Shown: positions 204 through 43,508, counted from the stretch's first letter. The stretch is 64,000 bases of DNA from Clostridiales bacterium (GCA_012838805.1 DUON01000010.1:1072-65071), one strand, 5' to 3'. Program-made: numbers and translations. Notes: a model not told the origin generated them from the letters alone.

Positions 204-573
204 AAAGCGGACTTACCGTATAATTTCTTTTTAGCGAAAAAAATCCATTCCCTATTATCATTCAACTATAAAGAGCTGTCGGTATGTAAAATTTCACTTT
301 TTTTGCAGAAAGCCAAAAACAAATATTTCGGCATAATTGACCGCTCTTAACAAAGAAAAAATCCGTTCAAAGCGTCTCTGTCTTAATGAAACCTATCTCT
401 TTTTAACCGCTTTTTTTTCGTTTGCTGACTATTATCACAACAACAATGGCGATAATAACGAAAATTATTTTTTTATCTTTTTTGCTAAATAAGAAAAATC
501 AAATAATATACTTGGTAAATTTTCTATTATATAATACAATAGAGGTAACTAAAGAACAAAAAAAGGGGATTTT

Positions 574-972
574 ATGGACAAAGAAAGGATAAAGTCGCCT
601 GAAGAATCAAGAACCGAACACACCCAAATAGTATTTTCTGAATATATCAACGGAGTGGGAAGGCTTTTTGGCGGAAAGCTTGTGGAATGGATGGATATTG
701 TCGCTGCGGTGGTGGCAAGAAGACATTCGGAATGCGAAGTGACCACTGCTTGTATAAACAAAATGGACTTTGCCCTGCCCGCTGAACTCAATGATACCAT
801 AGTCATTATCGGAGAATTGATTTCCGTGGGCAACACCTCTATGAATGTTCAAATAACCGCCTATGTGGAAAAACTGGGAGGGAAGAAGATAAAAATATCC
901 ACTGCGAATTTTGTTATGGTGGCATTGGGAAAAGACGATATCCCCTGCAGAGTGCCCAGACTGTCGCAATAA
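574..972 (+). CDS. acyl-CoA thioesterase (hotdog fold, YciA-like)
   Basis: 132-aa ORF with the signature [22 protein letters not shown] typical of acyl-CoA hydrolases. A G-rich SD lies about 5 nt upstream of the ATG. Confidence 0.8.
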
Positions 973-39710: not shown

Positions 39711-39770
39711 ACAATTTTATAAATAAAATCCAAGAAAATTAAAAAAAACGCCCAATAAGCCCTATCTTTG

Positions 39771-40313
39771 TCATATTCTAAGCTTTTCAAGCATTCTATT
39801 AAGCTCGTCATTGGGTAAAATATCGTCTTCAATCACCTTTTCTTTTGCTTTTTCTATAATTTTCTGATAGTTCAAACAAGGTTCGCCGTCTATTCTCTCC
39901 CTTTCATAAATATAGCTATCCGCCACATTTTGATTAATGCCTAAGTCGGTATACAGCATATCCTCAAGCTGAATTTGGCATTCCTTCAAGACTTGATTGG
40001 TTCTTTCGATATCCTTTGCCAGCGTTCCCGCCTTGTCCTTGTCCTTTATATACCTAAGCCACTTGTTCCTATATACTCTAAGCCTTTCACACTCCAGAGC
40101 GTATTTTATTTGGGCTTCTTGAACAAGCTCTTCAGACTTCTTCTTGGCAAACGCCAAAGCCTGAACTATTTCTCCGTCCTTTTTGCGGTATTCTTCAAGC
40201 GATATGCTTAAATCGTTGATTTGCTTTTTTAATTCTATTATCCTCTGCGCCTGCTCTTGTATAACCTTATTTGAGTTCTTGATAAGCTGGCAATCTTTGC
40301 ATTTTTTTCTCAT
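39771..40313 (-). CDS. coiled-coil protein with DivIVA-like segment
   Basis: 180 aa with heptad-rich sequence. The stretch …EEYRKKDGEIVQALAFAKKKSEELVQEAQ… resembles the DivIVA domain. The family call is tentative. Confidence 0.5.
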   Translation of the reverse strand: MRKKCKDCQLIKNSNKVIQEQAQRIIELKKQINDLSISLEEYRKKDGEIVQALAFAKKKSEELVQEAQIKYALECERLRVYRNKWLRYIKDKDKAGTLAKDIERTNQVLKECQIQLEDMLYTDLGINQNVADSYIYERERIDGEPCLNYQKIIEKAKEKVIEDDILPNDELNRMLEKLRI

Positions 40314-40579
40314 ACAAAGTAATTATAAACTGTTCTATTTGTATTTAAACACTTTTATTGATTATTTTTGTCTTTTCCTCCCGACAAAATTTATATATGT
40401 TTTATTTATTTTTATCATTATATATATAGGCTTTCGATTTTATAATCCGAAAGAGTATGTCGGCAATCGGTTTTTGTTTTTTTTATTGATTTTATAAATC
40501 AAGGCACAAGTAACAAAAAAATCTTGGAACTAATAAAATGGTAATGACGCAAATATGCGCTACAAAGGAGAAAATGATT

Positions 40580-40816
40580 ATGTACGATTGCTTAGATAAA
40601 AAACCTTGTTCAGCTAGCTGTTTTGGGAAGGAAATCCATCCCGTAAACTTGTTTCTTGTAGAACAAAAGAAATGCTGCAAACCCTGCTGCTGCAAACCCT
40701 GCTGCAAACCCTGCTGCAAACCCTGCTGCTGCAAACCCTGCTGCTGCAAGAAACCCTGCCCTCCAAAATGTTTTTGCATTCCGCTGCTTTTAGTGCTTTG
40801 TGGCAACTGCTGCTAA
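40580..40816 (+). CDS. small cysteine-rich CCKP-repeat protein (78 aa, 24 Cys)
   Basis: AAAGGAG lies 9 nt upstream of the ATG at 40580, and a strong terminator lies 23 nt after the stop. The protein is MYDCLDKKPCSASCFGKEIHPVNLFLVEQKKCCKPCCCKPCCKPCCKPCCCKPCCCKKPCPPKCFCIPLLLVLCGNCC. Confidence 0.7.
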   Translation: MYDCLDKKPCSASCFGKEIHPVNLFLVEQKKCCKPCCCKPCCKPCCKPCCCKPCCCKKPCPPKCFCIPLLLVLCGNCC

Positions 40817-40838
40817 ACGGTTAGCTTAAATATTCAAA

Positions 40839-40868
40839 GTGGCTGTCATATCACAGCCACTTTTTTTT
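40839..40868 (+). terminator. rho-independent terminator of the Cys-rich gene
   Basis: GTGGCTGT-CATATC-ACAGCCAC followed by TTTTTTTT. Confidence 0.8.
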
Positions 40869-40912
40869 ATAATCGTTTTCAAGGTAAATGAACTATTATA
40901 TGTTATGAAGTC

Positions 40913-41950
40913 TTAGCTTGCAACAAAACTATAATTTATATTTATCTTTTTTTGCGATTTTACATGCTCTATATAGTCTATTACCGAATTGGAGCAGATA
41001 GCAAAGCCCAATCCTTCATTGACCATGGACTCTATTATCTTAAACGATACCACACCGACAACCTCGCCATAGATATTAAAAAGCGGGCCGCCGGAGTTTC
41101 CGGGATTTATGGTGGTATTTGTCTGCAAAACACGAATGGTTTTATAACTCCTTGGTGTGTTGGAGACTACGCCGGTAGTTAGCGATATCCCCAAGCCTTG
41201 AGCGTTTCCGATTGTCGCCACTTCCTCGCCTAAATTGACCAAATCAGCGTCGCCAAAGGTCACCGACTTTAACTTGGCAGGCGGATTGACAAACTTGATT
41301 ATGGCAAGGTCCTTTTCAATATCATAATCTATCACTTGCATTTGATACTCTTGAGAGCTGTTGCGATAATTGGCTTTGATAGTTGTATAAACCTTGGTTT
41401 CCGTTCCTATGGGAATGCGGAATCCGCCTAAGTTTTGATAAATTGTTTCCTCGTAAGTGACAACATGGGCGTTTGTGATAGCGTAGCCTTGCTGGTTTAT
41501 TATAAAAGCTGTCGCCTGAGAAGAACTTGAGCTTGAACTTGAAGAGGCTTTGACTTCCAAAACCGAATCGACATTCTCCGCTGCCTTAAGCCCTACGCTG
41601 AAATAGCCCTCTGGAAGATTGTACTCTCTCTTAAAATTATCAATGACCTCTTCGGTTATATATTCGCCCAAGAGGATTGTGGCCGATTGGGTGACTTCAT
41701 CGGTGATGTTGTCGGAGACCATTTCGGATATCTTGGTCGTCAGACGATTGGCAAGGGCGTCGTCAATTCTGTCGTCCAAGCTGTCCATCGCCGTTTGGAA
41801 GTCTTTGTCAAGCTTTTTTTGCATGCTTTGAGAAATCACCGCATACATTATCCCATTGAAAACAAAAGTAACAATAATCGCCGTTATTATTATGACAGTT
41901 ATTTTCTTTTTTTCGGCTTTTTTAGCGTAATGGTTGTCTTCATAGTTCAT
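40913..41950 (-). CDS. membrane-anchored trypsin-like (S1C/HtrA-type) serine protease without PDZ domain
   Basis: An N-terminal TM helix and a poly-Ser linker are present. Catalytic motifs TNAHVV, DLAIIK and GNSGGPLF are present. Confidence 0.85.
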   Translation of the reverse strand: MNYEDNHYAKKAEKKKITVIIITAIIVTFVFNGIMYAVISQSMQKKLDKDFQTAMDSLDDRIDDALANRLTTKISEMVSDNITDEVTQSATILLGEYITEEVIDNFKREYNLPEGYFSVGLKAAENVDSVLEVKASSSSSSSSSQATAFIINQQGYAITNAHVVTYEETIYQNLGGFRIPIGTETKVYTTIKANYRNSSQEYQMQVIDYDIEKDLAIIKFVNPPAKLKSVTFGDADLVNLGEEVATIGNAQGLGISLTTGVVSNTPRSYKTIRVLQTNTTINPGNSGGPLFNIYGEVVGVVSFKIIESMVNEGLGFAICSNSVIDYIEHVKSQKKININYSFVAS

Positions 41951-42128: not shown

Positions 42129-43508
42129 ATGGACGACAAAGGATTGAGATCTGACAAGATGAGAAACCAACCAATGGGAAGACTGCTTTGGGGCATGTCC
42201 TTGCCGCCCATGCTTTCCATGCTTTCTCACGCACTTTATAATATTGTGGATTCCATATTCGTTTCCCATTACAATATGAAAGCTTTGGAGGCTATCGCAA
42301 TCGCCTTTCCCCTGCAAATGCTCATTATTGCCTTTGCTACGGGCATAGGCACAGGCTCCAATGCCCTTGTGGCAAAAAAATTGGGAGAGAAAAAGAAAAA
42401 AGAGGCTTCCCTTTCCGCTCAGACAGGACTTTTAATTACTCTTATTTCTGCGGCGCTGTTTATAATAATCGGCGTATTCACCACCAAACCCTTTATCAGC
42501 AGCTTTACCAACGACCCCGAAACAATTTCTTTAGGCGTTCAGTATCTGTCAATCGTGCTTATCTTCAGTCCGTTTGCGTTTGTGGAAATTCATAATTCAA
42601 AGATATTCCAAGCCACCGGCAATATGAAAGTACCCATGATAACCCAGACTTTGGGAGCGGTCATAAATGTCATCTTCGACCCCTTGCTTATTTTTGGAAT
42701 TGGGTTTTTTCCCGAACTGGGAATTAGGGGTGCGGCGATAGCCACCGTCGGCGGACAATTTTGTTCCATGCTTGCGGGGATACTTTTCTTTAGGTTCACC
42801 AAGCAAGATGTTAAACCCTTTTTTGGAAAAGGTTTTCGTTTTAATAAAGAGATAGTGTGGGGAATTATGAAAGTGGGATTGCCGACCACTATATTAAAAG
42901 GCGTGGGCAGCTTTACTGTCACCATACTCAATACAATATTAAGGACATACATAAACGCCATTATGGTCATGGGAATTTATATCCGTCTTCAATCTTTTGT
43001 CTTTATGCCAGTATTCGGGCTCACCCAAGGCGCTTTGCCCATAATGAGCTATAACTATGGCGCCAAGAATAAAAAGAGATACTATAAAGCACTTAAACTC
43101 TCACTTATTGCAGCGGCGGCGATTATGGCGATAGGAACCTTGGTCTTTCAGTTTTTCCCTCAGGCTTTGCTGTCGCTTTTCAACGCCGAAGGAGAGGTCA
43201 TGGCTTTGGGCGTACAAGCTTTCAGGCTGTTAAGCATAAGCTTTATCTTTGCGGCGGTTGGCATTATGCTGACAATAATCTTCCAGTCGCTCACCAACGG
43301 ACTTGCTGCGCTTTGCCTTTCGCTTATGCGTCAAATCGCGCTCTTGATACCTCTTGCTTTTCTATTGAGTCATTTTATCGGACTAAACGGCATATGGCTG
43401 AGCTATTCCATAGCGGAATTTATAAGCATAGCGGTTTTTGTGCCTATAGCTCTGGCTTTCATTAGAAAAAAATTTGATTTAAAAAACAGCGGTCATGAAG
43501 AAATATAA
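42129..43508 (+). CDS. MATE family efflux transporter
   Basis: 459 aa with 12 TM segments and typical MATE N-terminal motifs. AAGGAG lies 5 nt upstream. Confidence 0.9.
   Translation: MDDKGLRSDKMRNQPMGRLLWGMSLPPMLSMLSHALYNIVDSIFVSHYNMKALEAIAIAFPLQMLIIAFATGIGTGSNALVAKKLGEKKKKEASLSAQTGLLITLISAALFIIIGVFTTKPFISSFTNDPETISLGVQYLSIVLIFSPFAFVEIHNSKIFQATGNMKVPMITQTLGAVINVIFDPLLIFGIGFFPELGIRGAAIATVGGQFCSMLAGILFFRFTKQDVKPFFGKGFRFNKEIVWGIMKVGLPTTILKGVGSFTVTILNTILRTYINAIMVMGIYIRLQSFVFMPVFGLTQGALPIMSYNYGAKNKKRYYKALKLSLIAAAAIMAIGTLVFQFFPQALLSLFNAEGEVMALGVQAFRLLSISFIFAAVGIMLTIIFQSLTNGLAALCLSLMRQIALLIPLAFLLSHFIGLNGIWLSYSIAEFISIAVFVPIALAFIRKKFDLKNSGHEEI

Follow-up and report, generated by a model that had tools for sequence, protein, structure and literature searches.

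Locus and gene architecture

The window, i.e., the whole 64,000-nucleotide stretch of Clostridiales DNA analyzed here (GCA_012838805.1 DUON01000010.1:1072-65071), belongs to a 1.69-Mb genome (G000) with a GC content of 41%. Its plus strand carries an open reading frame (orf) at 40580..40816, stop codon included, that encodes a protein of 78 aa with 24 cysteines (30.8%), the highest Cys fraction among the 14,050 orfs of at least 30 aa in this genome; such a composition is beyond chance. A first-pass annotation, made from the sequence before any database search, had proposed the same translation, and we reproduced it exactly. The Cys gene is divergent from a gene for a 180-aa coiled-coil protein (39771-40313, minus strand), which adjoins rpsJ, and convergent with a gene for a membrane-anchored HtrA-like serine protease (40913-41950, minus strand). 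Beyond the protease lies a MATE transporter gene (42129-43508), and a P1B-type ATPase is encoded ~12 kb from the Cys gene. An orthologue is present in the congeneric MAG G005, and two further family members, on contigs L168 and L181, were reached by tracing the 180-aa neighbor protein through public assemblies; they lie at the same site in the same orientation. The features of the locus are as follows (window coordinates).

40510..40515, plus strand: −35-like hexamer GTAACA (GTCACA in relatives); GT.ACAAAAA is invariant in five aligned lineages and the same in L181
40532..40540, plus strand: −10-like element AATAAAATG, exactly 16 nt past the −35; TAATAAAATG is invariant in all six lineages
40548..40559, plus strand: short stem-loop or palindrome CGCA-AATA-TGCG near the predicted mRNA 5′ end; stem kept in four lineages
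40564..40570, plus strand: Shine-Dalgarno (SD) sequence AAAGGAG, identical in the window, G005, L168, and L181, those whose sequence reaches it
40580..40816, plus strand: coding sequence, 78 aa with 24 Cys; dN/dS 0.10 against the G005 orthologue, other frames not kept
40580..40672, plus strand: N-terminal module, aa 1-31, MxxC..K..PC...FGxxx(H/Y)P...hydrophobic...QKK; motifs shared across four family members
40673..40749, plus strand: in-frame array of 12/15-nt units coding for (C)CCKP repeats (Tandem Repeats Finder, TRF)
40766..40813, plus strand: greasy, Cys-bracketed C-terminal segment KCFCIPLLLVLCGNCC, conserved in G005 (KCFCFPLLILLCGCC) and recognizable in L168 (CCFPCICFLIGCCG)
40836..40871, plus strand: intrinsic terminator, fold energy z = −6.6
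40672-40824, +2 frame: wrong call in public annotation, 50-aa Leu/Gln orf
40492-40749, minus strand: wrong call in public annotation, 85-aa Gln/Gly/Leu orf

The first-pass description of a free-standing gene with a good SD and a strong terminator agrees with what lies here: the gene is monocistronic, the SD (40564-40570) sits 9 nt before the window ATG and 9-10 nt before the conserved ATG across lineages, and the terminator hairpin with its T8 tract (40836-40863) has an 11-bp stem and a fold energy of −18.3 kcal/mol (z = −6.6), with 0/200 shuffles as good. The terminator is probably bidirectional and shared with the convergent protease gene. We set aside another ATG at 40574 as the start codon because it lies too close to the SD (3 nt) and is not conserved in the relatives. 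The window protein returned a pLDDT of 35 with no predicted fold (AlphaFold2), and we propose that it is intrinsically disordered. Ser and Thr are absent from its Cys-rich core.

Several other features were observed around the gene. A promoter-like sequence, TTGCAA-17-TATAAT (10/12 matches; 40923-40895, minus strand), lies inside the 3′ end of the protease gene and points antisense toward the Cys gene; transcription from it would run straight into the shared hairpin terminator. Directly 5′ of the 180-aa gene, a block of ~70 nt (40314-40385; ACAAAGTAATTATAAACTG...TTTTGTCTT) is strongly conserved in four lineages and is presumably the promoter or leader of that gene. At position 39740, between rpsJ and the 180-aa gene, a homopolymer is one T shorter in the window than in all eight of the other same-species assemblies, which may reflect an assembly error in the window genome. 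In G005, the Cys gene adjoins a second HtrA-like protease paralogue (L002, 216-1415, plus strand), which is not found at this site in the window genome and carries collagen-like GQD and SAYDIAVxxGFEGSExEW repeats N-terminal to its trypsin domain. We rejected a functional link between the Cys gene and the adjacent protease because the protease is kept in congeners that lack the Cys gene and the G005 neighbor is a paralogue.

The Cys frame is conserved and under purifying selection

The G005 orthologue is 87 aa long, has the same synteny, and shares 74% aa identity with the window protein; the alignment has one 9-nt and one 21-nt gap, with synonymous differences at 22 codons and non-synonymous ones at 20 (dN 0.165, dS 1.62, dN/dS 0.10). 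The gene order rpsJ, 180-aa gene, Cys gene, HtrA-like protease is maintained in the relatives. The L168 family member (420..728, minus strand) has 102 aa, and that of L181, truncated where its contig stops, has at least 91 aa; the pair gives a dN/dS of 0.18. In both, an Asn/Gly/Tyr-rich insert is followed by CQPKPCC/CCPKPCC repeats, and L168 ends in a greasy, Cys-bracketed segment. Through these inserts the Cys content of the relatives goes down to 17%, and the G005 orthologue carries three Cys-to-Tyr replacements. Two short contigs, L163 and L166, end within the promoter and keep only that part of the locus.

Only the Cys frame is open in G005, L168, and L181; the 50-aa Leu/Gln frame and a 104-aa antisense frame are broken there, and it is the Cys frame alone whose SD and start codon are conserved. 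The first-pass annotation had singled out indels that are not multiples of 3 in orthologous loci as evidence that would count against the gene; instead, the indels are 9 and 21 nt and the dN/dS values 0.10 and 0.18. Taken together, these results show that the Cys orf is a genuine protein-coding gene under purifying selection.

The deposited gene calls read the locus differently. The species is present in at least 135 collection blocks; all seven same-species assemblies inspected (L152-L158) carry a wrong call, either the 50-aa +2-frame orf or the 85-aa antisense orf, and no gene is called at the locus in G005-type contigs. Thus, in every checked assembly that spans the complete gene, the gene is called in the wrong frame or strand or left uncalled, and the sole correct-frame call is on a partial contig of a relative. 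The Cys protein is missing from protein databases because public gene callers chose another frame or the opposite strand; as a practical lesson, gene finders systematically misread genes of this type.

Database searches and taxonomic range

Pfam and NCBIfam scans of the window protein and its relatives returned no family (Pfam-A hmmscan at E ≤ 1 for the window protein and E ≤ 10 for the relatives), and a PDB search gave only Bowman-Birk noise at E > 1, in keeping with the first-pass annotation, which could place the protein in no family. A word-indexed search of 5.8 G proteins found no match, an exhaustive HMM search of 1.84 G (billion) protein representatives gave 0 matches, and none of five start or orthologue variants was present in an exact look-up against a collection of 15 billion proteins. 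At the DNA level, a back-translated scan of genome contigs recovered the G005 contig only; the corresponding scan of metagenome contigs gave no match to the Cys gene, nor did tblastn against phage and plasmid collections. Rfam produced nothing near gathering scores at the locus.

A six-frame HMM search of 81 genomes of the family, which needs no gene calls, found the Cys gene in G000 and G005 only. With a 3-sequence profile, a six-frame search of 401 genomes of the order returned only noise outside the genus, and six-frame searches over about 700 order genomes confined the gene to a sub-clade of one genus. Weak matches from the first genome search (L003-L008) proved spurious. A tree of the neighbor protein groups the carriers of the Cys gene within a single sub-clade of the genus, which also includes G001 and G004; these two have other genes at the site (e.g., Fe-ADH), and we therefore consider the gene young and dispensable and the site variable. 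Congeners with SpoIVA also lack the Cys gene, and its product is therefore not a core spore component.

The repeat array is recent, and the protein rather than the repeat is conserved

TRF detected the in-frame tandem array of 12- and 15-nt units that had been described at 40672-40750, placing it at 40673-40749 with periods of 12, 15, and 27, 5.5 copies, and 90% matches. No DNA-level tandem repeat was detectable in the G005 orthologue. The window array was therefore homogenized recently in its own lineage, and since the Cys/Lys/Pro composition is kept in G005, it is the protein that is conserved and not the repeat. The repeat units are CCKP in the window, degenerate in G005, and of the CCPKP type in L181 and L168.

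The suggestion that repeat number could vary by slippage held in part. Between species the arrays differ completely; within the species no variation was seen, the locus being 100% identical in seven other assemblies. The latter comparison is a weak test because the strains are 99.8-99.98% identical over 5.5 kb, i.e., only 0.02-0.2% diverged. Whatever its product does, the gene is young, built of repeats, and fast-evolving: its coding body is being remodeled behind a regulatory region that stays frozen.

A candidate sporulation-type promoter

Two blocks upstream of the gene, GT(A/C)ACAAAAA and TAATAAAATG, are invariant across six lineages; the stretch between them varies in sequence and never in length, so that the spacing from GTmACA to AATAAAATG is always exactly 16 nt. 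Two invariant blocks at a fixed spacing form the pattern expected of a two-block promoter, and in its architecture this candidate resembles the putative sigK (GTAACA-16-CATATAATA) and dpaA (AACACC-16-CATATTATG) promoters of the same genome, as well as that of a second Cys-rich microprotein gene described below (GTAACA-16-CATAGTGTG). The −10 element departs from the CATAnnnTG class of this genome by one mismatch, at the first base (A for C): AATA replaces the CATA of the seven sigK-class promoters used for training, a departure that is itself invariant.

A position weight matrix built from these seven promoters, with the Cys gene left out, gave the site 12.6 bits, which places it at about rank 35 among 3.39 M genome positions. 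The genome contains six occurrences of the pattern GTMACA-16-NATANNNTR, and three of them lie ahead of sigK, the second microprotein gene, and the Cys gene; both tests were devised after the site had been seen. A weak sigma-A promoter (GTAACA-18-TAAAAT, 9/12 matches) is an alternative reading of the region, and sigma-A-like matches in the AT-rich spacer occur at chance frequency (6 found vs. 3.0 ± 1.8 expected).

The short stem at 40548..40559 shows one CG-to-UA compensatory pair, with 94% of cells paired, and L181 also has GTGC...GCAC. We discarded it as a significant RNA element, given 73/500 shuffles and a fold energy of z = −0.6, which is not significant.

Sporulation genes in the window genome

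SpoIVA (654 bits, cut-off 460), SpoVAD (415 bits, cut-off 412), and SigK (268 bits) all score above their cut-offs in the window genome. A DpaA match (186 bits) lies below its 261-bit cut-off, and a full-length Spo0A-like gene scores 166 bits against a cut-off of 200. Judging from this gene set, the uncultured gut bacterium is likely competent to sporulate; we call this likely and not proven because an alpha/beta-type SASP (PF00269) was not detected in the genome and Spo0A is below cut-off. Some Christensenellales MAGs are predicted spore-formers (PMC12536801).

Other cysteine-rich microproteins

The window genome encodes a second Cys microprotein (contig C10, 64246-64452, minus strand), of 68 aa with 14 Cys, in which an N-terminus rich in Gly, Phe, and Asn is combined with two greasy cores bracketed by Cys, CECLILLLLILCCCG and ICCILPWILILCCCC; we refer to it as the twin-core protein. 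Its promoter, GTAACA-16-CATAGTGTG, is of near-consensus sigma-K type. Relatives of the twin-core protein (L147-L151) were found in 6 of 151 order genomes, at least three of them with a similar promoter (G067, G018, and, by inference, G003), and those in other genera have (m)ACA-N16-CATAnnnT promoters. The twin-core family resembles the window Cys gene in occurring in the same genome, in its GTAACA-N16 architecture, and in a Cys-bracketed core of the ILPLLLIL type, and its Gly/Asn/Phe-rich N-terminus is like the inserts of L168 and L181; it differs in having two cores, no CCKP array, and a wider distribution. Homology between the window protein and this family is unsupported (hhalign probability 2.6%), the resemblance being confined to the level of the C-terminal motif.

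In metagenomes, a DNA pattern coding for CCKPCCKPCC gave at least 120 matches; judged by inspection, nearly all of them appear to be other 12-nt repeats read in the wrong frame, and we rejected these. Two genuine analogues were seen. One, on a low-GC metagenome contig (L135, 139-426, minus strand), encodes a 95-aa bacterial protein with 32 Cys and CCKPCCKPCCC and PPKPC repeats, and has as neighbors an AraC-type regulator and a metallophosphoesterase gene; it shows no homology to the window protein (BLASTP, E = 11). The other, a 65-aa orf with 29 Cys on an IMG/VR giant-virus MAG contig of 21% GC (L145, 1125-1322, plus strand; MCNCCKPICCKPICCKPCCKP...CCRPKCCC), is made up of CCKP units over nearly its whole length; it seems to have arisen independently in a virus, and it shares only this repeat with the window protein. 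The CCKP motif thus looks convergent.

A putative cross-linker of the spore surface

The reading that we favor, with a probability of roughly 50%, is that the Cys protein is a disordered, high-sulfur cross-linker of the spore coat or exosporium, expressed in the mother cell and analogous to CdeM and CdeC, the Cys-rich proteins of exosporium morphogenesis in Clostridioides difficile. The Cys gene would be transcribed in the mother cell late in sporulation, from the putative sigma-K/sigma-E-class promoter GTAACA-N16-AATAAAATG, and its monocistronic mRNA, with a strong SD and a strong terminator, would be abundant. The N-terminal ~30 residues and the greasy, Cys-bracketed C-terminus could attach the protein to the coat, the exosporium, or the outer forespore membrane as these assemble; there, the (C)CCKP array would present a dense field of thiols, and once oxidized, these thiols would form intermolecular disulfides that harden and cross-link the spore surface. 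A protein of this kind would be a bacterial counterpart of the keratin-associated proteins, functionally like CdeM/CdeC or the CotY/CotZ/ExsY proteins of Bacilli. The gene is a taxonomically restricted orphan, and we infer its function together with its sigma-factor dependence, the timing of its expression, the location of its product on the spore, and the disulfide cross-linking. The analogy with disulfide-cross-linked spore coat or exosporium proteins, first raised in the initial annotation, gains indirect support from the sporulation genes of the organism and the candidate sigK/dpaA-class promoter.

The same composition could serve a cytoplasmic, metallothionein-like thiolate peptide that binds or buffers soft metals (Cu(I), Zn, Cd), or a sacrificial thiol/redox buffer of the vegetative cell. 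The composition is comparable to that of metallothioneins: Cys makes up 31% of the protein, arranged as CC, CCC, and CxC together with Lys and Pro, there is no fold without ligands (pLDDT 35), and a P1B-type ATPase is encoded ~12 kb off. However, Pfam and NCBIfam gave no match to a metallothionein family, and the candidate promoter resembles the sigK/dpaA class. The locus was also checked for a metal sensor gene or operator of the SmtB/ArsR, CsoR, or MerR type, and none was recognized, the only palindrome having a 4-bp stem that matches no known operator. Metallothioneins do not typically have aromatic residues or a conserved greasy C-terminus such as those seen here, and in the relatives Cys is diluted to 17% by Asn/Gly/Tyr-rich inserts and swapped for Tyr. 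Tyr is the other classic cross-linking residue of spore coats. The inserts of L168 and L181, the three Cys-to-Tyr swaps of G005, and a repeat body freely remodeled behind a frozen promoter fit a cross-linked matrix better than a metal-binding site. The metal-sequestering option of the first-pass annotation thus found no contextual support in the absence of a regulator or operator and in the presence of the greasy C-terminus and the inserts, and we regard a metallothionein-like role as unlikely.

Another reading takes the protein to be a membrane-associated Cys-rich microprotein that its greasy C-terminus anchors to the cell or forespore membrane, where its function would be thiol/redox or other and not that of a structural coat component. 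In the twin-core microproteins, which occur in the window genome and in other genomes of the order, one core (CxCDILPLLLILCCCC) is similar to the C-terminal KCFCIPLLLVLCGNCC, and such a role is compatible with sporulation-specific expression. The greasy stretch, however, comprises ~10-14 residues including Pro, short for a transmembrane helix; a signal peptide is absent, and the hhalign probability to the twin-core family is the low value given above (2.6%). We consider this membrane reading improbable.

Much less credible is a RiPP precursor whose N-terminal ~31 aa serve as a leader and whose Cys-rich part is the modified, exported core, with the neighboring protease and MATE pump taking part. 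The leader-like segment followed by a Cys-rich core has the right layout, and the membrane protease (40913-41950) and MATE transporter (42129-43508) are adjacent; but the flanking genes include no radical-SAM, lanthipeptide, or other maturase gene, the core has neither Ser nor Thr, and NCBIfam shows no match to SCIFF or another RiPP family. Furthermore, the protease and the 180-aa gene are kept in congeners where the Cys gene is missing, and there is therefore no dedicated cluster. Finally, the idea that the locus is non-coding repeat DNA, or that its true product is the overlapping 50-aa Leu/Gln or 104-aa antisense Gln/Gly/Leu frame, follows the choice of gene callers in seven public assemblies and is refuted, because the Cys frame alone remains open, under purifying selection, in G005, L168, and L181, the SD and start codon are conserved solely for it, and G005 keeps the protein composition in the absence of a DNA-level repeat.

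Extending the spore-surface reading, one may speculate, with some doubt on our part, that the Cys protein belongs to a class of repeat microproteins, ultra-high in sulfur and made late in sporulation, that has so far stayed invisible in the uncultured Clostridia of the gut. Its members, analogous to the keratin-associated proteins, would arise and turn over fast by in-frame repeat expansion at variable genomic sites, would be misread by gene finders and missed by tryptic proteomics, and would together form a lineage-specific, disulfide-hardened outer spore matrix. Tryptic proteomics would miss CCKP-type microproteins because K-P bonds resist trypsin. If the spore-surface model is right, the spore surfaces of uncultured gut anaerobes hold lineage-specific, extremely sulfur-rich microproteins unseen by current pipelines. 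These could affect how resistant the spores are, the chemistry of their surface, and their interaction with the host, and would be a compact natural case of a disulfide-matrix material outside animals.

Comparison with known systems

The first-pass annotation had likened the protein to keratin-associated proteins and to metallothioneins, and in both cases the likeness turned out to be compositional only. Metallothioneins (bacterial SmtA/BmtA and MymT, and the eukaryotic MTs) share with the window protein their size, ~30% Cys, CC/CxC motifs, and a disordered apo-form, whereas the window protein has a greasy C-terminus and aromatic residues, no family match, and no evident metal-responsive regulation. 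Keratin-associated proteins (the Keratin_B2 families) and the sperm protein SMCP are built of short CC-x-P repeats with ~30% Cys and act as disulfide cross-linkers of a matrix. The resemblance to them is an analogy of mechanism, convergent and not homologous: their genes are eukaryotic, whereas the window gene is bacterial, with an SD, an intrinsic terminator, and a place beside the S10 ribosomal operon that several bacterial MAGs share. Neither Keratin_B2 nor Keratin_B2_2 was matched (0 Pfam-A families, a count in which HMMER bias filters may suppress low-complexity matches).

Among bacterial spore proteins, SscA (YhzE) of B. subtilis is small and Cys-rich. The B. subtilis gene yjcZ belongs to the sigma-K regulon (PMC517825). 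SscA and the YjcZ-family proteins are very small, late mother-cell (sigma-K) products, as we propose for the window protein, and the YjcZ type has a short greasy core that recalls its C-terminus. Both families are without a CCKP array, unlike the window protein, which gave no match to the YjcZ family (PF09680/TIGR01732) at E ≤ 1.

Homology to known coat proteins (CdeM/CdeC, CotY/CotZ/ExsY) was found neither in the sets of 5.8 G and 1.84 G proteins nor in Pfam, NCBIfam, or the PDB; the comparison with them is one of organization. CotY and CotZ (B. subtilis crust) and ExsY (B. anthracis exosporium) are cited as Cys-rich, disulfide-cross-linked, self-assembling proteins of the outer spore layers (in PMC6101409). 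These are folded proteins of ~150-160 aa in a conserved family, whereas the Cys density of the window protein is far higher and no homology links them. The closer parallel is with CdeM, which is monocistronic, driven by sigma-K, unique to one species, and located between housekeeping genes, and which contains Cys-rich CNCCNCCRK repeats in addition to NGNNGG repeats (PMC6101409). CdeM (161 aa) and CdeC (405 aa) are longer than the window protein (78 aa) and contain ~9% Cys instead of 31%, and their location on the spore is shown, whereas for the window protein we infer it. The likeness lies in a monocistronic gene among housekeeping genes, a sigma-K-type promoter (a candidate here), a narrow range, and the lack of conserved domains; the short Cys-rich repeats of CdeM and CdeC (CNCCNCCRK, CCRQGKGK) can be likened to the array of the window protein, and their Asn/Gly-rich repeats to the inserts of L168 and L181.
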